From the IMG/VR virus record IMGVR_UViG_3300028591_000010, positions 32,001-96,000 of that record: DNA of 64,000 nt, one strand, 5' to 3'. This document shows, piece after piece, positions 21,963 through 58,075 of this stretch (position 1 is its first letter; each line of letters starts with the position of its first letter). Source of the stretch: a virus (taxonomy: Duplodnaviria > Caudoviricetes). The notes beneath the pieces are model-generated. The model saw nothing but the letters and a program-made list of their open reading frames with translations, searched no databases and was not told the origin of the DNA. Position numbers and translations under genes: made by a program.

Positions 21963-22661
21963 TTATGCGGCCTTTTTAAGGCCTTCTGAGCTCTTTTTAG
22001 AGTTCAGCTGGACAGTTGTACTACCCTTCTTCTTTGCTGCCTTCTCAGTGGCCCATTTGTCGCGTAGAGATTTTACTTGAGCTTTGAAGTTTTTACGATT
22101 CTTCTTGCTCATATTAGCAACATTATAGCGCTTTTTGAGAACGTTCTTACCCTTTGGGCGGCTATGTGGAACGTTCTTGTTCTTGGGTTTCTTCGGAATC
22201 TCCTCTTTGGATATGACTGATTCCATCTTCTTAGCATATGGATATATCTTTGCTTTCGGAGGAGCAATCTCACGAATCTTCGCGAGTATATCCTGATTAC
22301 CATCTATAGAGAAGTACGTATCTCCGTGATACTTATACTGAATCTTGGCTTTTGCCAAAGCCTCCTTCATCATAGCACTATCCTTTGTGTCTAGCATTAC
22401 GAGGATGCTATATTCCTTCGGAGCATTAAGTTGCTCTATGAGTTTCTTAACCAACTCCTCTGTCTTCTCTTCCGTAAACTTCATACGAGCACAACGGCGA
22501 CGTAGTGCATTAATTCGGAAATTACGGAACTGTTCTTCACGAGCCTTTTTACGAGCTTCTGCGTCTTTAATAGACTTTACCTTACCTGTAGGAACATTAG
22601 ATGTATTCTTATTGGTAGCCTGACCATTCTTGGCAGTTTCTACCTGCGTATTCTTATTCAT
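21963..22661 (-). CDS. Very basic hypothetical protein ending in ..GLKKAA
   Basis: 232-aa Lys-rich ORF with A-rich leader. Confidence 0.8.
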   Translation of the reverse strand: MNKNTQVETAKNGQATNKNTSNVPTGKVKSIKDAEARKKAREEQFRNFRINALRRRCARMKFTEEKTEELVKKLIEQLNAPKEYSILVMLDTKDSAMMKEALAKAKIQYKYHGDTYFSIDGNQDILAKIREIAPPKAKIYPYAKKMESVISKEEIPKKPKNKNVPHSRPKGKNVLKKRYNVANMSKKNRKNFKAQVKSLRDKWATEKAAKKKGSTTVQLNSKKSSEGLKKAA

Positions 22662-22892
22662 ATTGATTATGATGTTTTTAAAAGTTAAAATAATTTGTTA
22701 ATTGTACGCGCAAACCAATTCATGCGCTTGAGCATATAGACTATATTATTGTGGTCATTATAGACACCAATAACTTTGTAGTCTTTTGACAGCTCTTCGA
22801 GACGAGTATTACTGATAATACCGTCACTGGTTATTTGGATATATTTTTGTTTCATATTGATTACGATTTAAAAGTTTTGGGAAATATTTTTG

Positions 22893-22951
22893 TGATCGGT
22901 TACGGGAACGATCCGCTCATACATAGAAATGTATGCACCAACATTCCGATC
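22893..22951 (-). ncRNA. Degenerate tRNA-like element
   Basis: GATCGG/CCGATC stem, CATACAT-TTCT-ATGTATG arm and GCGG-ATCGTTC-CCGT T-like arm. Confidence 0.35.
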
Positions 22952-22960
22952 GGTTTTCGC

Positions 22961-23515
22961 TTATATAGCGAAATCCTGCTCAAACATAGTAGCAGTCTTA
23001 TCGTCAAGAGTAATCTCAGTATTGTTATTGAAATTCTCCATATTAGTGTCAAACTTATTAGCCTTCAACTGCAAATCCTTAATCAGAGCTGCAATCTTAG
23101 CACTTGTGAAAATCTCCTCCTTACCAATATTCTTAAGACCCTTCTGAGCCTTAGTCTTCTGGTCAAGCGTAGGAATCATCTTAAGCTGTGCAATAGCCTC
23201 CTTCATCTCACAAGCCATGAAGATGCTATAATTGTTGGTCTTCTTGAAATCCTCAGCATTGAACGTATCAATACCCATATTTAAATAAAACAACATACCT
23301 TTAATATACACCAGCTTCTCTGCCATCTGAGTAATCTCGTTATAGAGAGCCTTCAGATCGTGTGTACGGAAGCCATTCTTAATCTCTTTCTTAGAGAGCA
23401 GATTCTCTGCCTTAATATAGCTCCAATACTTCTTCTTCTTACTATTAATATCATCACGCATATTAATAATCTTACCTGAGTTCAACTTAATTGATTTCGT
23501 CATATATATAAACAT
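22961..23515 (-). CDS. Hypothetical protein
   Basis: 184-aa helical ORF. Confidence 0.8.
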   Translation of the reverse strand: MFIYMTKSIKLNSGKIINMRDDINSKKKKYWSYIKAENLLSKKEIKNGFRTHDLKALYNEITQMAEKLVYIKGMLFYLNMGIDTFNAEDFKKTNNYSIFMACEMKEAIAQLKMIPTLDQKTKAQKGLKNIGKEEIFTSAKIAALIKDLQLKANKFDTNMENFNNNTEITLDDKTATMFEQDFAI

Positions 23516-23625
23516 TTGATTTAGTTAGACTTCGTGTTAATTAAATTGAATTCGAGTATCATCTACCTGTGACTTATAGCAAATCGCTTCACTATAAATC
23601 TAAACAAATCTCTGTGAGGGCAGAA

Positions 23626-23976
23626 TCCCGCAAGATTCTACCCTCAAACTCCCGCAAGAGTTATAGACGAGATAAGTTTTATGAAAATAGCATTATCGAC
23701 AATGACCTAGATATATTCATTGCTCAGTTCATCAAGATGTTATTATACTACCGCAATAATATAACAACTAAATCCCGCAAGATTTATTAGTCTCGACTAA
23801 TATGAGCTCCGACTACACCCATTTCAAGGTCAATAAATGCTCTACCAGTTGCGTCTGGAAAACGATACGTATGAGTACGTGTACGAGTATTAACGTTAAC
23901 GACAATGTTTGTGTCATTGGCAGGTGTCTCAGTGACTACAACCCTTGAGCCCGACTTCCTCTGGTCTCCCGCAAGA
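23626..23976 (-). repeat. Four hairpins sharing TCTTGCGGGA (loop UUGCGG)
   Basis: TCCCGCAAGA on + at 23626, 23650, 23773 and 23967, each with different self-complementary flanks. Confidence 0.75.
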
Positions 23977-24377
23977 GACGATTGTCCGTCACCATTACAC
24001 ACATGTCTATAACAATCCATCAGACGATTAACTACATCGTTATACTTTTCCGCACGTTGTGCTTCCTTAGCTATTTCAACACTCAAACCTTCTTCCAATG
24101 CTTTCGCATTTAATCCTGAAGAAAGGTCAACCAGGGCATCCCATACAGCGAGAGCCCAACTTTCAAATGTAAGTTCGCGCTTACATCCGATCAGCTGATT
24201 CCAGAACCAATGAGTTGTTTCACCAAGAATCACGGTTCCTTCTACATCGTCAATACGATACGTCTTGTATGATCTACCCTCTTTGCCAGCAGCTTTTACC
24301 TTATTGGCAATAGTTTCATTGTTCATCAGAATCTCCATATATTTTACGGAGTCTGGAACGAGGGCTGTTTTCGGCAT
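23787..24377 (-). CDS. Hypothetical protein
   Basis: 196-aa ORF. Confidence 0.8.
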   Translation of the reverse strand: MPKTALVPDSVKYMEILMNNETIANKVKAAGKEGRSYKTYRIDDVEGTVILGETTHWFWNQLIGCKRELTFESWALAVWDALVDLSSGLNAKALEEGLSVEIAKEAQRAEKYNDVVNRLMDCYRHVCNGDGQSSLAGDQRKSGSRVVVTETPANDTNIVVNVNTRTRTHTYRFPDATGRAFIDLEMGVVGAHISRD

Positions 24378-24379
24378 AA

Positions 24380-25033
24380 CTATTCAGTTACGTGAACATT
24401 TACAATTGCATCTGCGTTTACGTCAGACTTAATATCGAGATTATCGATCTTAGACTCTGACCACTGACGCTTGTACTCAGCAGCCTTACGGAGATTTTCC
24501 GTAATAGCAGTCTCTACAGACTGACGCTGACTCTGAAGAGTCTTAATCAGCGCATCGATCTCTGCCAGAGTACCCTTATTGGCCTCATTCAGGACAGATA
24601 CAGTTTCGTCAACTGCGACAAAGAAGTTCTTACCTGTGCCACGCAGAGCATCATTGATAGCATCGCGCATAGACTTCTCTACAACCAGAGGGTTAGTGCC
24701 ATTCAAGGGGCACTTGAAGTCACTTTCGCCATTATCCTTCAAGTTAACAGCAATACATACACGCTGGGAGTCGCCAAGACCTTCCGTCACATAGTTGACA
24801 CCTTTGATGTCAATCAGACGAATGGTGTAACGCTTTGGCGACTGGTTCACCATCAAAGTATTACTTGCAGTAGCAAGATTCTTAGCCTCTTCAAACTTGT
24901 CCTTACCACCAGGCCATGTGGGCTGACATTCTACTTTACCAAAAGTCTTACCGAGAAGACCACCGATGAAACTCGCCGACTGACGAGTGCTTGCAATCAC
25001 CTCATTGAGGTTAATTTCTACGTTTTTATCCAT
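24380..25033 (-). CDS. Hypothetical protein (C-terminal coiled coil)
   Basis: 217-aa ORF with strongly biased codons. Confidence 0.85.
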   Translation of the reverse strand: MDKNVEINLNEVIASTRQSASFIGGLLGKTFGKVECQPTWPGGKDKFEEAKNLATASNTLMVNQSPKRYTIRLIDIKGVNYVTEGLGDSQRVCIAVNLKDNGESDFKCPLNGTNPLVVEKSMRDAINDALRGTGKNFFVAVDETVSVLNEANKGTLAEIDALIKTLQSQRQSVETAITENLRKAAEYKRQWSESKIDNLDIKSDVNADAIVNVHVTE

Positions 25034-25049
25034 TTTTACTTATCCTTTT

Positions 25050-27170
25050 TGATACCGTGGTTGATCCACCAACGATAAGTTAGAATATTTCCTACTTCAG
25101 GGTGTAGGTTCACCGCTATAGAGAGATTTACGTCCGGCTCGGCGGCTCTATGTCTGGACGGTGTTCGTCATACTTATTTTTACTTCGGTAGCTGTGCTAA
25201 TGGGAAGCTTCGTTTGCTTACTAGATTGTTACACTTCTATATTCCTTAAAATGAAGCTCAACTCATGTAACGGGAGCGAAATGGTATCGCATGTATACCC
25301 ATAGACTAATAATATTCGAAGCTTTAAATGCCGAATGTGTAAATTCAATTTCTAAGTTTTCTTGAACAAGATATTTATTGTTTGTAAAATATTCACTAAA
25401 TACTTTCCCTTACGGTACTAAATCCAGAGTTTATACTTGTCCGTTGGCAAAATTTTGGCTAGGCCAACTAATGCTCATAGGACCCCACAAAAATTCGCGT
25501 AATTTCTTCGTTAGTATATTTCCCGTTGTCTATCGAATCATTACTGCGACGATTGTTGCTTAACCACAGATTTTCTCTGATGTTGCATGGTTTAAGGCCC
25601 ACACTACTATTTACCTATATTCCCTTTTAATCATGACGTGCGTGTGTCATTGCACGGGACGTGCTTCATTATCGAACGATCTAGGCTCCAGAACCAAATA
25701 ACCTTACGGCTTGTTTTCTTCTATTGGCATATTGCTTGCCTCATTGTTTATAGTGCACGAATACTGGAGGAATTCCACCTCATACGTCTAGATTTATCAC
25801 CCACCTAAAGATTCATTTTTATCGGTTTCCATTACTACTACTTACACACTAGGTATAAGGTTCATGCAGGTCGCTTTACCCCTCCTAGACAGGGAGGTGA
25901 TTACTAATTTCACGATAGGCTGCCTTGCATCTGGATTTCTCCTTTGTCACGTATATTGCTTCATGGTCCGAACGCACCATCTAGATTTGCTGTCTAGACT
26001 TCTGGTCTACCATCTTGCTACTTGCTTCTCAGGAACGGTTGGCACTCGAACTTCCCGACTTCAACTGCTTCTCATACAACGAGAGCTAAGGTCTTCTACA
26101 CCTTTTTCTATTATTACGTCTATCGGGGGACATCAATTTTTGTTAAACATGTTAATTAACTCTACGGCACGTTTTTCTACTCACATTTAGTTTCATCAGA
26201 ATCTACTACATCGATATGTTGTTCACGTATAGTATACAGTTTACTACTCTGCCGGGACTATATGATATAGTAACATAAGGAATCATCTGATTATATTCAT
26301 GCTTTTGAGGAAGCGGACTTAAGTCTGTACTGGTGTGTACAGGGTCGGATCAACTCCCTAGATAAGTAAATTTGGCTGTCACGTTGCCATCGTACCACAG
26401 GACATTTCCTTTTACTGTGGGTCCTTCTATAGAATCATACTCGCTTACCAGTACTATCTACCTTTGAAATAGCGTTTCTACGCGCGCTTCATCCGCGTAT
26501 TGTAGGCACCTGTCCTACAAGTTAAGTAGTGCATCTACCCGCTGTCCTTTTACTTTTATATACCGCATAAATGACGAAAGCCTGGCGGTCAACATTTTCC
26601 TCAGTACCCCATCCCCGGTGACCCATTGAAACCTTAGCTTCAAAGGTGGTCATTCTGTCTCGACACAGAAAGGATTTCTTCAAGGACCATATTTACGATA
26701 TGGCGCAGACAGTCAAACCTTCTGCTAGGCACATATGTTATTTCTTCATCCCTTTATACACGCTGTGGAGGCGTGAAACACTAGATTACAGCTAATTGAT
26801 ACATCATTACAAGTCATGGTCAAATGTAATGTTGCGACTCCTGTCTCGTTATACTACCCTTATGTATCCTCAGATAGCATGTCGAATACGGCATCATTCT
26901 GCGCTTCTTGCGACTTACTCGTTTTTATGGTAATCCCTCACCAAACGGTTCTCAGGGGCCAAAGGACTTGATACAAACGCTCTGTCCTCTTACTATGAAC
27001 TTTTCTGTTATGGAGTATGCATAACATCATAGCATTTCATCCTACCTTTTGGATATCTCACCTTTTGAGAAGGCTAACATATTCTCGGATCAAGTTATAC
27101 TCTTCGCACCTGGGCTAATGAGACCCATCTGAAATGTGCTAAGCAGGTGCCACTCTGGCTGGAGCCACAG
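25050..27170 (-). ncRNA. Candidate very large structured non-coding RNA region
   Basis: About 2.1 kb with no minus-strand ORF in the track, inside a dense minus-strand operon; many hairpins (25881-25897, 25963-25980, 25980-25998, 26472-26483, 26500-26520, 26653-26670, 26687-26703; CC-GTAA-GG twice). Confidence 0.55.
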
Positions 27171-27175
27171 TAATC

Positions 27176-27676
27176 CTACTGTGACTCCCCTGTGGAGTGA
27201 TTAACGTTTTTAGAGTATACAACTTCACCGTCGACAGTGAGCTGTATAGCAGATTCTTTAGAAGAACCTACATCACACTCTCCAGTTTTCTCCTCACGAA
27301 CTGGAGCTCCTTTGTTGCTAACAGTATCCACAGATGTCGGCTTTGGAGTAAGCATCATCCATGAATAGTCTGTCACTCTCGCGGGCGAGCTAACCCTTGA
27401 GAATTTTGTTTTAATAACTAGGATCTGCGGACGGTCCACATACGCAGTATCGTGTATGTACAGAGTATCTCTGCTGACCGTTGAATCCATTTGTACCGGC
27501 TGCTTCAGGGATGCCTGAAGGTCGTATGGCAACTTAGATATCTCCAGTGGAGATAACGTAGCTGCACTGAGAGTCTGATGCTTAGCAAAAGAACTCCCTG
27601 TACTATTTGACATTGCCAGGAATCCGCCAGCTAAGGCGAATGCAATGCAACAAATAATTGTTGTTACGTATTTCAT
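27176..27676 (-). CDS. Exported/membrane-anchored hypothetical protein
   Basis: N-terminal signal/TM segment; ends at TAG. Confidence 0.7.
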   Translation of the reverse strand: MKYVTTIICCIAFALAGGFLAMSNSTGSSFAKHQTLSAATLSPLEISKLPYDLQASLKQPVQMDSTVSRDTLYIHDTAYVDRPQILVIKTKFSRVSSPARVTDYSWMMLTPKPTSVDTVSNKGAPVREEKTGECDVGSSKESAIQLTVDGEVVYSKNVNHSTGESQ

Positions 27677-27716
27677 CTTTGATAGATTAATTTACCTAGT
27701 TGCCGTAGTATACAGA

Positions 27717-29105
27717 TTACTTCTGCTCTTCAGCAGGAGTCTCTGCCTGGGCAATTTCGGTGATGTTACTTTCTGAGTAAGCAATCGACTGAGAAAGAGG
27801 ATCACGGAACAGGTTAACGATGATGCCGGCACGCTGCTGTACGTTGTGCAACAGTGAATCCATATCAACCTTAGTCAGATCAGTACCCTTATAATAGGTG
27901 TTGATGATCTGGTCAACAATCAGGTGAGCACGCTTGTAGTCAGCGTCGGTGTCATCCTTCTTGTTGAAGTTGTCGATGAGGTTGTCAACGTCCTCGATAG
28001 AGGGGTTGTTCATACCAATAACAATGCCGTTCATCTCATTGATAGTGTTGTTACATTTCTCAATGTAATCCTTGTGGGTTTTGATGTCAGTCTTTGCAAT
28101 GTTCACCTCAGTTGCATCTTTGTTTTCCTTAACAATTTCCTCTTTCTTCTTGATGATGCGCTCATTCTCCTTAATTCCCTTCTCTGCCTTAGAGATTTCC
28201 TCTTTACAGGACCAAGTGATCATGATACGGACCAAGTCGGCAATGAAGTCGTTGGTGAGAGCACCTTTGGTGTCGATCTTATCCGCATTGCGGCGATACA
28301 TACAGAAAGGACCAATGATTGTACCAACGTTGACGAAGTTCTTGCGGAACAAGCCAGCGTTACCAACCAGACCAACGGGACACGGACCTACGACAGCAGC
28401 CATTTCAGAGAGAAGGTCAGAATAGCTCTTATTCTTCACCTCTTCAAGAGCAGCCTTCTTGTCTTCAGCCTTGTTTGCCTGAATAGTCAGATAACCACGA
28501 TAGAAATCGGTAGCACGACGCATGCGGGCAATAATGCCCTCATTACCTCTACTGATAAGCAGAGTCAACGATGCAGCGAGTTGCTCGGGACTAGTAACTT
28601 CTGCAGGGTTGGTCACACCTTCCAACTTCTCTTCGGCAGCAATCTTCTTCTTCATGTCATCACTTACCTTTACGGCAGTGGACGGAATCTGAACATCACC
28701 CTTCTCATTAGGAGCGGGCAAAGCCTTCACATCAATTGCTACGCCAGTGAACTCGCTGATGGCGTTTACAGCTTCTACCTGGTTCTTCAGCATCATTTGT
28801 GCAAATGGGCTCTTATTTTCATGAACCTCAATAGCCAATACTGTTGCAAAGCCAGTCAATGTGAATACATTGATACTGTGAATCGTGTCTTCAGACAGAT
28901 TATAATATGCAGCAGCGTTAGGATTGTCGTGGATCATACCTTTCAAGCCATTCAACGCCGTTACAGTCGCATCGGGGCTTAATCCACTCTTTATCCCATT
29001 TACCACTGTCTTAACAGCTGGATTTTCTACTTTTGGAGTCTGCTGTGCTGCAGCCTCTTCTGCAGCCTGCTGTGCAGGACTCTTCTTGTTATTCTTGTTT
29101 GCCAT
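27717..29105 (-). CDS. Hypothetical protein, probably highly expressed
   Basis: 462-aa ORF with strongly biased codons. Confidence 0.9.
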   Translation of the reverse strand: MANKNNKKSPAQQAAEEAAAQQTPKVENPAVKTVVNGIKSGLSPDATVTALNGLKGMIHDNPNAAAYYNLSEDTIHSINVFTLTGFATVLAIEVHENKSPFAQMMLKNQVEAVNAISEFTGVAIDVKALPAPNEKGDVQIPSTAVKVSDDMKKKIAAEEKLEGVTNPAEVTSPEQLAASLTLLISRGNEGIIARMRRATDFYRGYLTIQANKAEDKKAALEEVKNKSYSDLLSEMAAVVGPCPVGLVGNAGLFRKNFVNVGTIIGPFCMYRRNADKIDTKGALTNDFIADLVRIMITWSCKEEISKAEKGIKENERIIKKKEEIVKENKDATEVNIAKTDIKTHKDYIEKCNNTINEMNGIVIGMNNPSIEDVDNLIDNFNKKDDTDADYKRAHLIVDQIINTYYKGTDLTKVDMDSLLHNVQQRAGIIVNLFRDPLSQSIAYSESNITEIAQAETPAEEQK

Positions 29106-29188
29106 TTTGATAACGGTTTTAAAGATTAAATACTTGTAGCTGGTTAGACTACTTAACTATAACCAATTGCCGAAAGTAGACGTTTCTT

Positions 29189-29593
29189 TCAAGAATCATC
29201 TATAATTGCAACCGAGTTTGGTGGATTCGGCAAGATATGGATGTATCCCTGAGTCACCTCAGAGACATTACTCAAGGTAAAATTACGCTCATAAGCAGGT
29301 ACTATTGCCTGACTCACAGGTTCTGAAGTTACCTTCTTAGGTGCTGGTAGACCATCATCTGCTAAAAGGTATACTAATGAACCTGATGAAGCCGCCAGCC
29401 CCTGTGTGGGCTGTACCTGCATGAACGTCGTCTTACCTTCATCTTTAGCGAAGCTATCATGGATAAGCTTAACGCCTGCAAAGCCCAACACATAACATGT
29501 GAGCAATGCCCAGAACAGCTTATTACTTTCATTGTATCGAGCAATGAGAGTAATTAATACTATTCCGAGAATGAAAGTGAACAATGTCAACAT
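29189..29593 (-). CDS. Membrane protein (2 TM)
   Basis: Two N-terminal hydrophobic helices; directly downstream of the sigma gene. Confidence 0.75.
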   Translation of the reverse strand: MLTLFTFILGIVLITLIARYNESNKLFWALLTCYVLGFAGVKLIHDSFAKDEGKTTFMQVQPTQGLAASSGSLVYLLADDGLPAPKKVTSEPVSQAIVPAYERNFTLSNVSEVTQGYIHILPNPPNSVAIIDDS

Positions 29594-29596
29594 AAC

Positions 29597-30166
29597 TTAA
29601 ACGTTAATTTTGGTTTTTAATTTGCGTCTAGTTCTCGACAACGTTGACTTTATAGTTCCTGTTGGGATTTTTAACGCTTTACTAATCTTTTTAACTGGTA
29701 AATTATCGACATAAAACAACTCAAAGATCTTACGAGTGACCTCTGGTAGTTTTTCGAATTCAGCGACAACTTGTTTATACGTCAAATGATTGACTAGATC
29801 ATCCTCCGCTGATACTTGAACATTTTTAAGTGACAGTCTATCACCTTCATCTTCAAGTACAAGTCGCTTATTACGCGTCTCACGTAAATAATCTACAGCT
29901 GTATGATTAGCTATAATTCTCAGCCAACCTCCAAAGGAGTTGTAAGCTGTGAATGTCGAGAGTTTATCATACACTTTAAGAAATACAATATTAGCGATAT
30001 CTTTCGCTTCATCCATATCTCTAAGATATTGGAATAACACACTTTCAACAAACGGTTTGTATCTTCTATAGAGTGTATTAAAAGCAAGCTCATCGCCTGC
30101 TTGCGCCTTTTTGATTAGACCAATTTCAACATCGGTGATTCTAGGATTCTTCATAATCAAAAACAA
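29597..30166 (-). CDS. ECF-type sigma-70 factor
   Basis: AQAGDELAFNTLYRRY, AKDIANIVFLKVY, FGGWLRIIANHTAVDYLR (region 2); LPEVTRKIFEL..ISKALKIPTGTIKSTLSRTR (region 4). Start may be at MKNPR. Confidence 0.92.
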   Translation of the reverse strand: MFLIMKNPRITDVEIGLIKKAQAGDELAFNTLYRRYKPFVESVLFQYLRDMDEAKDIANIVFLKVYDKLSTFTAYNSFGGWLRIIANHTAVDYLRETRNKRLVLEDEGDRLSLKNVQVSAEDDLVNHLTYKQVVAEFEKLPEVTRKIFELFYVDNLPVKKISKALKIPTGTIKSTLSRTRRKLKTKINV

Positions 30167-30218
30167 TTAGCCGGTTATTAAGGTGTCACTCCTGTAACAG
30201 ACGGTGCTGCATATAGTG

Positions 30219-30335
30219 TAAGAAGTATGAGCAGGGTTCAATTGGACTTATCTTTAGGATTAGAGTACCTTCACTAGTTGCCAACCATCGCTCTGTACTC
30301 CCAGATCGACTGCTACGAATCTTTCATACTTCTTA
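30219..30335 (-). promoter_or_regulatory. Structured RNA in the sigma-factor leader
   Basis: Perfect 12-bp stem TAAGAAGTATGA/TCATACTTCTTA enclosing further helices. Confidence 0.45.
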
Positions 30336-30377
30336 ATTGTGGGCAGTTGCTATCAAAAGCTACCTCAAGGGACTGCC

Positions 30378-30800
30378 CTAGAACGGGAGATCTTCAGTAT
30401 TTATCTCTGACATCTCCTGCCTTATGTTAGAAGTTAAGTTATGATGTATCTTTTTCGCGATGTCATCTGGTACATACCAATCGTCTACTAGCTTATTTAA
30501 TGTACTTGTAAATATACGAATTCGTACATCTATAGCACGATAATCCGTTATTCCAATAGCTAATACAATACGATCGTTAACCCACTTTAAGAGATTTCTT
30601 AAATGTGAGTTTGTACAAATGGCATATATAACATCTTCATCTAACTTCTCGTCTCCAGAAACAAATATTCGTGGACATTCTAATGCGCAATTGCGCCTTG
30701 ATTGTATGATACGCAACTGGGCGTACTGTTCACTAACTTTTGTTTCATCAGTAATTGTGACTCCTAAGAGTCTTAAATAGTAGGAAAATATACTAAACAT
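30378..30800 (-). CDS. Hypothetical protein with SSB-like EDLPF tail
   Basis: 140-aa ORF; TAG stop right after DLPF. Confidence 0.75.
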   Translation of the reverse strand: MFSIFSYYLRLLGVTITDETKVSEQYAQLRIIQSRRNCALECPRIFVSGDEKLDEDVIYAICTNSHLRNLLKWVNDRIVLAIGITDYRAIDVRIRIFTSTLNKLVDDWYVPDDIAKKIHHNLTSNIRQEMSEINTEDLPF

Positions 30801-31304: not shown

Positions 31305-31308
31305 ATTG

Positions 31309-31382
31309 TGATTCCTAATGGATTCGAACCATTGACCGACAGATTAGAAATCTGTTGCTCTATCCAGCTGAGCTAAGGAACC
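31309..31382 (-). tRNA. tRNA-Arg(UCU)
   Basis: GGTTCCT/AGGAATC acceptor, GCTCAGCTGGATAGAGC D arm, ACAGA-TTTCTAA-TCTGT anticodon arm, AATGG-TTCGAAT-CCATT T arm. Confidence 0.93.
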
Positions 31383-31456
31383 GTTACGTCAGCGGCTACT
31401 ATTATTCACCGCTGACTACTATTACAAATCGTTCATTAGACATTGCCTCACGGCAG

Positions 31457-31503
31457 GAGTGAGGTAGGGATTCGAACCCCATACTCCAACATAGTCCTCA
31501 CTC
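31457..31503 (-). ncRNA. tRNA minihelix at the 3' end of the tmRNA coding piece
   Basis: GAGTGAGG/CCTCACTC stem plus TGGGG-TTCGAAT-CCCTA; 14-nt linker, no anticodon arm. Confidence 0.65.
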
Positions 31504-31725
31504 TGTCTGGGCACTTAGGTAGCCCGTAACACCGACTTTACGCTGCCTCCTTGAGGCCCGTATAGTCTGCAATGTTAATATTGCCAGTTAATTTTATATC
31601 AGAGCGCTTCACGACTTACCGTCTACCGCTGTCAAATCCAAATAGGCCCAGATACTCATGTTAGACTGGTGGACCTAGAGGGATTCGAACCCTCGTCCAA
31701 ACGGCTTATTCTCAGTCACGCTAAG
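31504..31725 (-). ncRNA. ssrA: Circularly permuted (two-piece) tmRNA; tag (A)GNINIADYTGLKEAA
   Basis: Acceptor piece GGACGAGGGTTCGAATCCCTCTAGGTCCACCA ends at 31667; 17-nt spacer; coding piece starts GGGCCTATTTGGATTTGAC at 31649. G3:U70 and A73. Tag ORF 31585-31538 follows TAACT. Outer boundaries approximate. Confidence 0.88.
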
Positions 31726-31926
31726 ATTCTTTTGATGTGATGTTGTCAAATCATGCTACATCTCTTGTGAACTCTATGATGATCAGTCACAGAATTCGAT
31801 TTAAGGCCATTTTCAGCCGTTCTAAGGCGTTTTCTAACCTCTAATGGGTAGCTAATCCATAAGCGGTTATTAAACGCTTCAAAACGGCTTTTTGGGACCC
31901 CATAAAAAGCACATTGCCCTACTACT

Positions 31927-32211
31927 GACTCTAAGGTTCTGAATAGAATATGCTTGCATTCTTGATATACAATGCAGTGTCAATATGTTGATACAATCTC
32001 GTACTGTAGCACCGGCTCTCAGGCTCGTACATTGTAATTTTTGATCAAATGCCCACATATTATTACACCGTGTGGACAGTGGCAGTTCTCCGCACGTGGC
32101 TCTCAGGCTCTTGTGACAGATGTTAATTCACCCGTATCTAATACCCAATTCTATAGGCGATGCCATCATCTTTTGAGATTTACATAGATTTAGACGTGGC
32201 TCAAAGGCTCT
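31927..32211 (-). repeat. Non-coding cluster of four AGARCY-N-RAGYC motifs
   Basis: Copies at 31927-31940, 32014-32027, 32098-32111 and 32198-32211, spaced 84-100 nt. Confidence 0.7.
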
Positions 32212-32238
32212 TGTCTTGGAGAACTTAGAGTAGTATGA

Positions 32239-35656: not shown

Positions 35657-35803
35657 TTGTACGTTATGTATAGAAAAAGGGCAATAACTATAAGACCAAT
35701 CCAGAAACCTGGATCAAGTTTGTTTTTGTTAGTTGTTGACGTCATTTTCTAACTTAACATTGATTGTTAAACTTGGTAGGACATTACTCACCTTTCCTTG
35801 AGT

Positions 35804-36031
35804 TTATTTTGAGTATGGTCTCAAATAACAATTATGTGGAATTTCTTCCATACAACGTTGTTGAGTCCACTCATTAGTTGGACCCCAACCACCAATGAAG
35901 CATGGAATAGGATTATTATTTGCTTGACACATACAACATCTACGATTAGGCATAGATGCTTCTGTTATCTTATAATCCTTACCGTTTACTTGAATTATAT
36001 CTCCTGGTTTATTCATTTTCCTTGAACACAA
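35804..36031 (-). CDS. Small Cys-rich hypothetical protein
   Basis: KPGDIIQVNGKDY..CCMC, resembling 35053-35241; real start probably MNKPG. Confidence 0.65.
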   Translation of the reverse strand: MCSRKMNKPGDIIQVNGKDYKITEASMPNRRCCMCQANNNPIPCFIGGWGPTNEWTQQRCMEEIPHNCYLRPYSK

Positions 36032-36249
36032 ATCAGATTACCTTCTAACTTAGTACCTAACTTATTTGTTAGATCATTGAGAGATGCTACAAGAGCACGA
36101 TATCCATTCTCTGTTATCCCTTTACAAAATAACATAGAACTATTACCTGACTTGAAATAGACACGCTTACGGTCATTCCCGTAAGAGTCCACACGCTTCT
36201 TTTTAGGAAGCGGTGGATGCTCTTGATTTTGATGTTTTTGTGCTATCAT
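36013..36249 (-). CDS. Hypothetical protein
   Basis: 78 aa with ATGA overlaps. Confidence 0.65.
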   Translation of the reverse strand: MIAQKHQNQEHPPLPKKKRVDSYGNDRKRVYFKSGNSSMLFCKGITENGYRALVASLNDLTNKLGTKLEGNLICVQGK

Positions 36250-36975: not shown

Positions 36976-38293
36976 TGTTTTAATTTTGATAATTATAAAC
37001 TATGCTGTGACATTTATTAAACCCAGCAACAGCATCAGGGTTGAAATGGTGAAATGATAACGATATCTTTTGCATATTCATCATCTTTTTCATAATGATT
37101 TAGTACATCTTCTAATGTCATACCAAACCAATATACAACATATATATTCATATTTAATTGTATTATATTCTTTCAAAACACCATGCACAGAGCTCCCGCT
37201 GAAGATGTGCATGATGGCGTAGGAGAAAAATGAGACAAATAAGTGTATTAATTACCTCAAATGAACTATCAATCGTATGTCACTATTTCACAATAGTGTC
37301 TCCTACTGATTTCAGAAACTATCATTCTAAAACACACAAATATTATGAATATCAATAGAACCTGCTAATTATACGACATAGGATAATAATAAAGCGGGGA
37401 ATGTGCACACGTATACACGCTGAATACACAAACCCCGCATCATACAGAAACCACACACAGTACAATGTATGGCTGTCCTTTCCTAAGGGACATTTGCAGT
37501 TTTATCGCTCTGCACAAATATCAACGCATTCCACGTACGATATTAACGCCTGTTTACTCATTAACTGTCGACTGAATAATGAGATTATATGAGCTTTCGG
37601 TATTACTCAAACCAGGAAAATATATCTTCACATGACCTGACTGCACAGTATACTGTACACATGTTGCACCTCTATTCCCTCAAGGTATTGGGAATTGCAG
37701 GAGTATCATCACACATTTGACTTATAAAACTACATTCGTCCTTCCCACTTCTCTCTTCCGACTTAAACGGTCTTTGTTGGTTAGATTCTGAATTTAATAG
37801 TCTTATCATACCAGATAGTACTGTAAGCACATGTAGATGTGATGCTTGTCAATCAGATGAACTGATTAAACAGGATACATTTATCCGCCCCATTTATATC
37901 GCGGACGGCAGATACTGCCCGCTTTTGGTTCTCAATAGTAGTATCGCTCTACATAATGTTCTATTTCAAACATTTAAAGAGATATGTGTTTTGATAACAC
38001 ATAATAATGTTCCTACGTATACTCTACAGGAATATTGAGCACACGTACATGTCCTGGCCAACGAGTTATTTCTCTAACATAATCATGATCAGCGATTGTC
38101 TTTGCCTCTTTATCGTACGTCATATACTATATAAATAAAGTTAAAACGTAAACAAGAGTAGCTGCTGCAACATACATATAGATGTACGTATTAGCTAGCG
38201 GATGAGAGTTTGATAATTTCTTCATATATCTTGATATATTGATGGATAATCAATGAATAGCCTATAAACATATATTCTGCATTAAAACTTAAC

Positions 38294-38334
38294 AAAATAA
38301 AGGTGTACACGCAGTGTTACCTGCGCATACACCT
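38294..38334 (-). terminator. Intrinsic terminator
   Basis: AGGTGTATGCGCAG-GTAACA-CTGCGTGTACACCT-TTATTTT downstream of the 38353 gene. Confidence 0.75.
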
Positions 38335-38352
38335 CATTGAACTTGTTCAGGC

Positions 38353-39006: not shown

Positions 39007-39159
39007 AATGCAGTTTTTATTTAATTGTTAATAATTGAATTATCGAACATTTATTACTATCCGTTCTTTAATAGAAGACAATGTTTGGAAATTGAAACAA
39101 GCGAATTTGTGTAGTACAACATACCTGTATTTCTCAGATAAATGTACTACACAATTAAA

Positions 39160-39261
39160 TCAATCTTCATACTTTCTGAAGTGAGGTTCTATACTTACTT
39201 CAATTTCTACAACATCCTCAATTGGGACATTATACATTTCTGCAAATTGCTCTTTTGTCAT
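39160..39261 (-). CDS. Small hypothetical protein (33 aa)
   Basis: MTKEQFAEMYNVPIEDVVEIEV... Confidence 0.45.
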   Translation of the reverse strand: MTKEQFAEMYNVPIEDVVEIEVSIEPHFRKYED

Positions 39262-39331
39262 ACCTCTTATATTTATTGAATATGAATATAACGCTATGTA
39301 TTAAATAGAAGGAAAAGGACGAAACTACGCA

Positions 39332-39544
39332 TTACTGCGCAGCCTCGTACCTGATGTCCTCTACCACAGTTGCAGGCATAAAGCGAGCGTGTGTTTTGAG
39401 GCGAGCACGTTTGATGAACTCGAGTGCGTCCTCGATATTTGCACTTGGTACGCTGTTGTACCATTTGCCCTCAAACTTGACTGATGCATAATAAACAGTC
39501 GTCGCTTTCATTTCTTTCTTATTTGCTTCCATATTGTAAAACAT
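39332..39544 (-). CDS. Early hypothetical protein
   Basis: 70-aa ORF downstream of a motif copy. Confidence 0.7.
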   Translation of the reverse strand: MFYNMEANKKEMKATTVYYASVKFEGKWYNSVPSANIEDALEFIKRARLKTHARFMPATVVEDIRYEAAQ

Positions 39545-39854
39545 TTTAGTTAATAATCCGTCACTTAATAACAGAAGAGTTTTGGTTTTTGAAGCATAAG
39601 AAAAGGAGGGAACGAACGTAACTCGTTATAATCCCTCCACAACACGAACGGCGTAGCTAACTGGGTGTCACTATGCGTGTTGCACTTCCAGCCCCGCGAC
39701 AGATGTGCCGTCACATTGTTGTGAGAAGTTACGTTTCTCACATCCGTTAGTTATGAGAAGACAACGTTTGGCCATTGAAAGGGTACGGGGGTAGTTTCCA
39801 TTTGCCTATCGGTGGGGGAGGCGTTATGTTGCTGTTTCTCATCTTTACACCCAC

Positions 39855-39907
39855 AAAACAAAAAAAAATAAAAAAAATTTAGGGAAGCCTTATTCAGACT
39901 TCCCTAA
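39855..39907 (-). terminator. Strong terminator separating the recoded lysis cassette from early genes
   Basis: TTAGGGAAGTCT-GAATA-AGGCTTCCCTAA followed by long T tracts. Confidence 0.85.
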
Positions 39908-40114
39908 TTCTCTCTCCATAACATCACTTGGTCCATGTATCCAAGATGTTATTGTTTTACAATTTTCCACCTCTTCAGCTATCTCTAATGCTTGCTGAGG
40001 TGTTACATCTATGTCTTCTATATCTACTTCAAATGTAGGTCTTGTTCCCGGTTCTGCTCCGTTATTTAGGATGCAGAAGGATAGCTTTATTCCGCTTTTC
40101 TTAGTCCTCTTCAT
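39890..40114 (-). CDS. Hypothetical protein
   Basis: 74-aa ORF; its stop lies within the terminator hairpin. Confidence 0.65.
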   Translation of the reverse strand: MKRTKKSGIKLSFCILNNGAEPGTRPTFEVDIEDIDVTPQQALEIAEEVENCKTITSWIHGPSDVMERELGKSE

Positions 40115-44680: not shown

Positions 44681-44755
44681 TGCTCCATGGTGTAATGGTA
44701 GCACGGGAGGCTCTAACCCTCCAGGCCCGGGTTCGATTCGATGGTGGGGCGACCA
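44681..44755 (+). tRNA. Amber suppressor tRNA(CUA), Gln-type body
   Basis: TGCTCCA/TGGGGCG-A-CCA acceptor, TGGTGTAATGGTAGCAC D arm, GGAGG-CTCTAAC-CCTCC (CTA at 44713-44715); irregular T stem. Confidence 0.9.
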
Positions 44756-57972: not shown

Positions 57973-58075
57973 TGCGAGGTAGCTTAATGGTAAAGCTGGA
58001 GACAAGTGCTTGTAAACGCGTTGTGGCGGCAAGTGAAGGAGGCACCTGTAGATGGTTCGATTCCATCCCTCGCGG
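57973..58075 (+). ncRNA. tRNA-like RNA with intact acceptor, D and T arms but an enlarged non-canonical anticodon domain
   Basis: TGCGAGG/CCTCGCG, AGCTTAATGGTAAAGCT, GATGG-TTCGATT-CCATC; a ~52-nt insert replaces the anticodon and variable arms. Confidence 0.65.

Follow-up and report, generated by a model that had tools for sequence, protein, structure and literature searches.

A conserved 2.1-kb non-coding element in crAss-like phages of the Suoliviridae, very probably a locus for structured RNA

Introduction

A phage operon interrupted by more than 2 kb without a convincing open reading frame (ORF) raises the question of what, if not protein, the interruption encodes. We consider here such an element, 2142 nucleotides (nt) long, on the minus strand of a 64,000-nt window (the whole stretch of DNA analysed, positions 32,001 to 96,000 of IMG/VR record IMGVR_UViG_3300028591_000010, to which unqualified coordinates refer). 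The source genome, from a ruminant-gut crAss-like phage, is recorded as complete at 106,373 bp and has direct terminal repeats. Few RNAs are both large and highly structured, and those that are well known have proved to be core machines or unexpected architectures, such as the ribosome, RNase P, group II introns, and the GOLLD, ROOL and OLE RNAs. A sequence-only reading of the window had suggested that the element, which we also call the gap, specifies a very large non-coding RNA (ncRNA) or RNA array outside the known classes, and this suggestion is supported by its conservation, its synteny, covariation over its full length, and the lack of any Rfam match. We conclude that the element is very probably one gene for structured ncRNA on the minus strand, or several such genes tightly clustered, kept by base-pairing selection across the Suoliviridae.

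Results

The element is non-coding

The minus strand is the sense strand of the operon around the gap, and the locus is organized as follows:

27176..27676, minus strand: upstream flanking gene, 166 amino acids (aa), with a hydrophobic N-terminus; syntenic in all relatives
25034..27175, minus strand: the non-coding element in full (2142 nt), which takes up all of the space between two minus-strand genes
24380..25033, minus strand: downstream flanking gene, 217 aa; syntenic, with aa identity of 18-40% among most relatives

The minus strand of 25034-27175 contains no ORF longer than 60 aa under translation table 11 or with TAG read as Q, TGA as W, or TAA as Q. In six homologs (the window and the syntenic interval of five annotated relatives) each sense frame of the gap carries about 50 stop codons, and reassigning any one or two stops opens no frame beyond a few hundred codons, so that the reported lack of a convincing ORF holds under every reassignment tried. 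As an RNAcode-like control we measured period-3 power in alignment variability over 150-nt windows; the ratio has a median of 0.5 in the gap with none of 38 windows above 4, compared with a median of 12.4 and 11 of 11 windows above 4 in a flanking gene from the same genomes. The coding-signal check that the sequence-only reading had proposed is therefore negative in the gap and strong beside it, and this difference, together with the lack of an open frame, shows that the stretch is truly non-coding. Hidden small ORFs are rejected because of the same absence of period-3 signal.

The phage evidently uses amber recoding (TAG as Q) over much of its genome, since it encodes a suppressor tRNA with anticodon CTA (44681-44755, plus strand) and since nearly all of the more than 30 genome gaps of at least 450 nt seen under the standard code vanish when TAG is read as Q. 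The element remains the largest non-coding stretch of the whole genome under this reading, interrupted only by one spurious antisense frame. Its sense strand is purine-rich, as had been noticed (A 33.5%, G 23.1%, A+G 56.6%). An ECF-type sigma factor, tRNAs, and a permuted tmRNA are encoded upstream on the same strand and replication genes lie downstream; no tRNA was found inside the element at any of 23 loci checked.

The element is conserved and syntenic in five subfamilies

A blastn search of 50,697 phage records gave patchy matches confined to crAss-like phages of the Suoliviridae, and the matched genomes have a gap of about 2.0-2.2 kb at the same place, either unannotated or filled with tiny or antisense 'hypothetical proteins'. 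A 17-nt invariant island led to over 100 contigs in IMG/VR, most of them 95-104 kb long, and an nhmmer profile identifies nearly all as true homologs, about 40 of them full-length; the 21 non-redundant full-length homologs range from 2054 to 2292 nt. At about 50 more distant IMG/VR loci the profile recognizes the 5' core, sometimes with the central block and nothing more, and there the core lies 136-283 nt (mostly 143-252 nt) into an interval of 2.0-2.5 kb that is ORF-free on the sense strand. Representatives matched to RefSeq genomes assign these distant groups to the Loutivirinae, Boorivirinae, and Bearivirinae, and tracing the locus through the shared ECF sigma-factor gene reveals the gap in the Uncouvirinae and in Canhaevirus too. 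An unannotated gap of 1.9-2.5 kb thus occupies the same slot in all five subfamilies (Oafi-, Louti-, Boori-, Beari-, and Uncouvirinae), within a shared gene order of sigma factor, small gene, 460-570 aa gene, 130-165 aa gene, gap, ~200 aa gene, and ~190 aa gene. Across subfamilies the 5' core, central block, and 3' stem follow one another in a conserved order and at conserved spacing, and in 10 of 11 genome pairs the gap DNA shows higher identity than either flanking gene (69% compared with 51% and 50% in one such pair). About 2% of each genome is unannotated in RefSeq or filled with spurious small ORFs.

Outside this family, PhiCrAss001 (Steigviridae; first 100 kb of 102.7 kb) has no profile match, no copy of the hallmark motif described below, and no gap larger than about 0.9 kb. 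A cellular homolog of the element was considered and rejected; among 120 GTDB contigs with the 17-nt core pattern the sole true match is a crAss-like contig of phage size (JAJWOH010000001.1, 101,563 bp) that carries a full-length copy and was binned in a Segatella copri metagenome-assembled genome. This binning is either a weak hint as to the host or an artefact.

Compensatory changes extend along the whole element

The homolog collection and covariation tests that had been proposed for this locus reveal both conservation and compensatory changes along the full 2.1 kb. The whole element was folded with RNAalifold on a gap-trimmed alignment of the 21 full-length sequences, with slid controls in which pairing partners were displaced along the alignment. 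The consensus has 264 pairs at -286 kcal/mol, compared with 82-91 pairs at -31 to -44 kcal/mol for column-shuffled alignments. Of the alignment cells at these pairs 88.8% are paired (33-45% when slid) and 763 are double-change cells (134-201 when slid), with a three- to five-fold enrichment in every 300-column segment, although these contrasts with slid controls are inflated to some degree because structure and pair counts come from the same alignments. In the 5' domain, with 31 pairs in the 21 sequences, 93.3% of cells form standard pairs compared with 35-45% when slid by 1-3 columns, and both sides have changed in 108 cells compared with 12-27, a count that none of 500 shuffles reached. The 5' core shared across subfamilies (33 sequences, four subfamilies) behaves similarly, with 95.5% paired against 27-50% in controls, 107 double-change cells against 8-29, and again 0 of 500 shuffles reaching the observed value.

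When covarying stacked helices were sought independently, 12 emerged in antiparallel register (nine short-range and three mid-range) and none in parallel register at those ranges. In all there are 28 well-supported helices (153 pairs) tiling from 27139 to 25038, each either local (less than 60 nt) or domain-level (60-400 nt). The evidence favours the sense strand: its fold is at -286 kcal/mol and that of the antisense strand at -234 kcal/mol, and the structure contains 607 G.U pairs and 156 A.C mismatches, two classes that are about equal in slid controls. The element thus shows, above phylogeny-preserving controls, the compensatory changes that mark a structured ncRNA.

Map of conserved features

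The principal features are listed from 5' to 3' on the sense strand:

27140..27175, minus strand: variable 5' flank just after the stop codon of the upstream gene (alignment columns 1-100), with lineage-specific hairpins in relatives
27106..27139, minus strand: first conserved hairpin, with outer stem 27139-27136/27109-27106, inner stem 27127-27123/27115-27111, and invariant loop UCUCAUUAG
27039..27090, minus strand: helix AUCC/GGAU (27090-27087/27042-27039) around a small hairpin with a CUCAA loop; 98.5% paired, 4 of 4 pairs covarying
26935..26957, minus strand: hallmark hairpin, with covarying stem 26957-26954/26938-26935 and invariant loop GAGAACCGUUUGGUG
26853..26878, minus strand: 7-bp hairpin with double changes in 7 of 7 pairs
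26653..26786, minus strand: cluster of covarying hairpins (26786-26783/26751-26748, 26775-26771/26763-26759, 26704-26699/26691-26686, and 26670-26666/26657-26653)
26538..26580, minus strand: long hairpin of 15 pairs within the most conserved sequence island (CAGGCUUU...AUGCGGUAUAUAAAAGUAAAA)
25752..26048, minus strand: central domain, in which the mid-range helix AGUGC/GCACU (26046-26042/25756-25752) joins the invariant islands GAGUGCCAACCG and AUAUUCGUGCACUAU
25673..25740, minus strand: CCGUAAGG hairpin (25740-25737/25729-25726) and helix 25708-25700/25681-25673, beside the invariant GUUCGAUAAUGAA
25211..25352, minus strand: 3' domain hairpins (25352-25349/25342-25339, 25322-25318/25215-25211, and 25290-25287/25279-25275)
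25038..25080, minus strand: terminal stem 25080-25071/25047-25038, enclosing an inner hairpin and the near-invariant AUCAAAAAGGAU

The inner stem of the first conserved hairpin is 97% paired with double changes in four of its five pairs, and the AUCC/GGAU helix region is part of the 5' core that is recognizable in four subfamilies. The hallmark hairpin is found in four of the five subfamilies; its stem pairs take several forms (CG 11, UA 10, and AU 8; and AU 17, UA 6, CG 5, and GC 4), and it recurs in Canhaevirus and Aurodevirus with a different stem sequence in each. The Aurodevirus copy is of a looser form, the strict form being unmatched there, and a search of Besingivirus did not recover the hairpin. 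The central domain also contains the hairpins 25999-25993/25985-25979 and 25844-25839/25831-25826, and the central block is detected in the Loutivirinae and Boorivirinae as well. The terminal stem has nine pairs, 99% paired and six of them covarying, and its 3' arm stops 4 nt before the downstream ATG (25033).

Six of the helices had been named from the single sequence, and four of these covary among the 21 genomes: 26670-26666/26657-26653 at five of five pairs, 26704-26699/26691-26686 at four of six, 25999-25993/25985-25979 at six of seven, and the CCGUAAGG hairpin at four of four. The other two, TTGTAGG/CCTACAA (26500-26520) and ATGGT/ACCAT (25963-25980), do not belong to the conserved set. 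One relative (L037, 1235-1565, minus strand) has an insertion of about 150 nt just past the first conserved hairpin that contains a tRNA-like T-arm, GGGGUUCGACUCCCC, although ARAGORN calls no tRNA in it.

No known RNA family matches the element

The Rfam search that had been suggested for the gap returned no known family, either in the window or in seven homologs. With the 4227 families of Rfam 15, cmscan gives nothing in the gap at the gathering score, nor at E up to 10 over 24800-27400, and nothing in the gaps of the seven homologs at E up to 1; the only match near the gap is a chance-level snoRNA (18 bits, E 3.4) that lies outside it. The models for GOLLD and ROOL (which we take to be RF01998 and RF03087), OLE, HEARO, raiA, and other large bacterial ncRNAs are unmatched in the same searches. 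A full-text literature search found no published description of the element, and the key crAss-like genomics paper is silent on it; a paper on UG/Abi reverse transcriptases brings up crAss-like phages for taxonomy only.

Several specific identities were tried and rejected. A group II intron has no Rfam match, and reverse transcriptase (PF00078) is absent from the complete genome, which also argues against a reverse-transcriptase template. A group I intron is likewise unmatched in Rfam, and in all relatives the ORFs on either side are intact genes, distinct from each other. An antisense regulator of phage transcripts is not supported, the longest complement in the genome being 14 nt, compared with 13-15 nt in shuffles. 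There is also an operator-like motif, AGAAC-N3-6-AGUC, with seven copies in the window where 2.6 are expected (3 of 100 shuffles reach seven):

13458, 16010, 16770, 18805, 20694, 29311, and 31927, minus strand: copies of AGAAC-N3-6-AGUC, all on the operon sense strand

The gap has no copy of this motif, and the element is therefore rejected as a sponge for it.

RNA libraries contain the element

Ten RNA-seq runs, from sheep and cattle gut, contain the stretch. The contigs of four runs from four studies were placed on 14 kb, with the gap represented by bins over 25.1-27.4 kb, and in all four the depth over the gap exceeds that of adjacent genes:

Run X3: gap 21-60, adjacent genes 0.3-12
Run X5: gap 15-92, adjacent genes 0-25
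Run X11: gap 0.5-7.7 (4.4-7.7 over 25.1-26.5 kb), adjacent genes 0-2.6
Run X1: gap 114-197, adjacent genes 50-70

Parts of the flanks lack RNA cover in X3, X5, and X11, and these were not used as evidence of absence; joints between RNA contigs inside the gap (single contigs, short sides, 90% likeness) were treated as strain or chimera noise. We regard these contigs as a weak hint of expression of the element.

Discussion

The conservation and covariation described here point to an RNA, and several aspects of its organization can be proposed. The element would be transcribed together with the surrounding early, replication-side operon; since it occupies the intergenic space completely, a separate promoter or terminator would have nowhere to lie, and we infer that it is a product of the operon transcript, which could then be processed to a stable RNA or act within the long transcript. 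By analogy with GOLLD, ROOL, and OLE it would most likely form one large multi-domain scaffold in the same 'ornate' manner, with the invariant loops as putative tertiary or protein contact sites. Pairing in the terminal stem takes in the positions 5-12 nt upstream of the downstream ATG; it may link the RNA to translation of the gene that starts there, or may alternatively mark a processing site. That the 5' core, central block, and 3' stem are conserved in order and spacing, and that the lengths fall in a narrow range, argues for an integrated unit, although this falls short of proof of one transcript. Whether the unit is one molecule of at least 1.5 kb we judge to be about evenly balanced. 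The fuller proposal, that every member of the Suoliviridae makes one RNA of about 2.1 kb folded as a multi-domain particle on the scale of rRNA, RNA-only or with proteins and possibly catalytic or cage-forming, is tentative and somewhat to be doubted.

Several observations weigh against a large structured RNA, or limit the evidence for one. Pairs were counted in the very alignments that yielded the consensus structures, so that the separation from slid controls is somewhat overstated. Covarying helices with spans above 400 nt, the global closing stem included, do not exceed the parallel-register control, and the helices thus fall short of showing a single global fold. In 200-nt sliding windows the minimum free energy (MFE) z-score against dinucleotide shuffles has a mean of -0.22 over the gap (19 windows), with none below -2, compared with means of -1.8 to -1.9 in the flanking coding regions. 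The description of the gap as hairpin-dense is therefore not borne out as a thermodynamic claim; local folding energy is close to that of shuffled sequence, and the structural case rests on evolutionary covariation and not on thermodynamics. The RNA-library evidence consists of contigs without strand or ends, from runs selected because they hold the stretch, and DNA carry-over is possible. A scan for sigma-70-type promoters and terminators is at chance level with none on the sense strand, although this consensus is unfit for Bacteroidota or phage polymerases. Finally, searches with the flanking proteins provide no link between the element and any protein partner. The only match to a Pfam or PHROG family is the ECF sigma factor two genes upstream, and the flanking proteins have no look-alike in the ESM Atlas and no sequence match in the PDB; Foldseek finds nothing at E up to 0.001 for an AlphaFold2 model of the downstream 217-aa protein (pLDDT, the predicted local distance difference test score, 74). 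The further suggestion of a ribonucleoprotein system involving basic flanking proteins accordingly finds no support, these proteins being without a Pfam, PHROG, PDB, or fold match. We also note, apart from the element, that 45-57% of the 200-nt windows in 22000-25033 and 27176-30400 (minus strand) have z below -2, which is unusual for mRNA.

The absence of long-range helices bears on whether the element is instead an array of separate structured RNAs, in modules of about 150-400 nt that are co-transcribed and then cut apart. The supported helices are all local or span at most about 300 nt, as such an array would have it, the near-zero z-scores fit many small independent hairpins, and RNA contigs are fragmentary over the gap in three runs. 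However, low-coverage metatranscriptomes are expected to give fragmentary contigs anyway, no internal repeats or repeated module were found, and the three anchor blocks keep their order and spacing across subfamilies while length is held to 2054-2292 nt in close relatives and 1.9-2.5 kb over the five subfamilies. We consider an array unlikely on balance, while taking it seriously.

The position of the terminal stem raises a different explanation, that the element is a giant cis-acting leader (5' untranslated region), regulating how the downstream genes are translated or how stable their message is, with no action in trans. The element abuts the next gene, with the covarying stem pairing the region just upstream of its ATG at 25033, the sigma-70-type scan recognized no terminator between the two, and one X1 contig spans 23766-25257. 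Only the last 45 nt or so touch the start region, though, and the element is more conserved than the gene that it would regulate; we are aware of no case in which 2 kb of conserved structure regulates a 217-aa protein, and we regard a leader as improbable.

An element acting as DNA, such as a replication origin or a packaging site, is more improbable by far. The gap is on the replication-gene side of the genome and transcription-primed origins exist in other phages, but the window has its GC-skew inflections near 11-12 kb and 42 kb, away from the gap, the G+C content is 0.41-0.43 in the gap compared with about 0.37 in the genome, and no iterons, tandem repeats, or inverted repeats were found in it. 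None of the features of a phage replication origin (A+T-richness, iterons or repeats, a skew inflection) is therefore seen, and the compensatory pairs, more than 150 in number and tolerant of G.U on only one of the strands, indicate single-stranded RNA.

That the gap is a hidden or decayed protein gene (with an unusual code, frameshifts, introns, or small ORFs) is scarcely conceivable, even though the phage recodes TAG and has a CTA suppressor tRNA and crAss-like phages are known for recoding and introns (PMC7886860), because no reassignment opens a frame in the six homologs, period-3 signal and group I or II intron matches are lacking, and decay would not preserve length and sequence islands in five subfamilies.

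A structured RNA locus therefore remains our preferred reading, and it can be compared with the large RNAs already described. GOLLD, a giant ornate RNA of phages and prophages with a structure from cryo-EM (PMC12286853), is similarly large and phage-encoded, with many conserved helices, invariant loops, no coding capacity, and a function that is not known, and the tRNA and tmRNA genes a few kb from the element on the same strand are a further likeness. It differs in size (roughly 0.8 kb compared with about 2.1 kb), and the element does not match its covariance model and is located inside a crAss-like phage operon without a visible promoter or terminator of its own. ROOL is likewise a large ornate RNA, often phage-borne and found in rumen samples, as this phage is in sheep and cattle gut RNA libraries; however, its model does not match, the element is about 3.5 times longer, and the host-phage lineage is different. 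Overall, the element is 2.5-3.5 times the size of the largest known ornate phage RNAs. Group II introns and rRNA domains resemble it in their kilobase scale, their purine-richness, and their short helices grouped into domains closed by mid-range helices, but the element has no Rfam intron-domain or rRNA match, the genome encodes no reverse transcriptase, and there are no flanking split exons. OLE, the ornate large extremophilic RNA of about 600 nt that forms a membrane ribonucleoprotein (PMC9723947), offers a model for a scaffold role as a large structured RNA that works with protein partners; it differs as a bacterial gene of the Bacillota with defined partners (OapA-C), whereas here there is no model match and no partner identified.

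A conserved structured RNA of 2 kb across a very abundant family of gut and rumen phages would represent a new class, as would a single RNA of about 2.1 kb if that reading is correct, and the latter would to our knowledge be the largest structured ncRNA from any phage. It would provide a target for RNA structural biology with more than 100 natural sequences for modelling, and it raises the testable question of what crAss-like phages need such an RNA for. In addition, annotation pipelines could mask the spurious ORFs that are called within the element.

Other non-coding intervals

Some further intervals merit mention. The second-largest non-coding stretch with TAG read as Q is 31305-32238, which contains a tRNA-Arg(TCT) and the permuted tmRNA (Rfam RF04321, 58 bits), and within it the bin 31609-32075 has depths of 340, 161, 283, and 210 in the four RNA runs, far above its neighbours; the source may be a small RNA of high abundance, or bacterial tmRNA-like pieces that cross-map. 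Three other intervals of 0.6-0.9 kb are ORF-free under the same code (35657-36245, 37593-38352, and 39007-39927) and are possible additional ncRNAs or regulatory regions. An Rfam tRNA match at 57973-58075 (plus strand, 103 nt, 37 bits) is not called by ARAGORN and may contain an insertion or intron. In PhiCrAss001 the largest unannotated gap (MH675552, 95965-96869, about 0.9 kb) adjoins a gene for a TROVE-domain (Ro60-like) protein. TROVE-domain proteins bind small Y RNAs in other systems, and the gap is a possible unannotated ncRNA locus of that phage.

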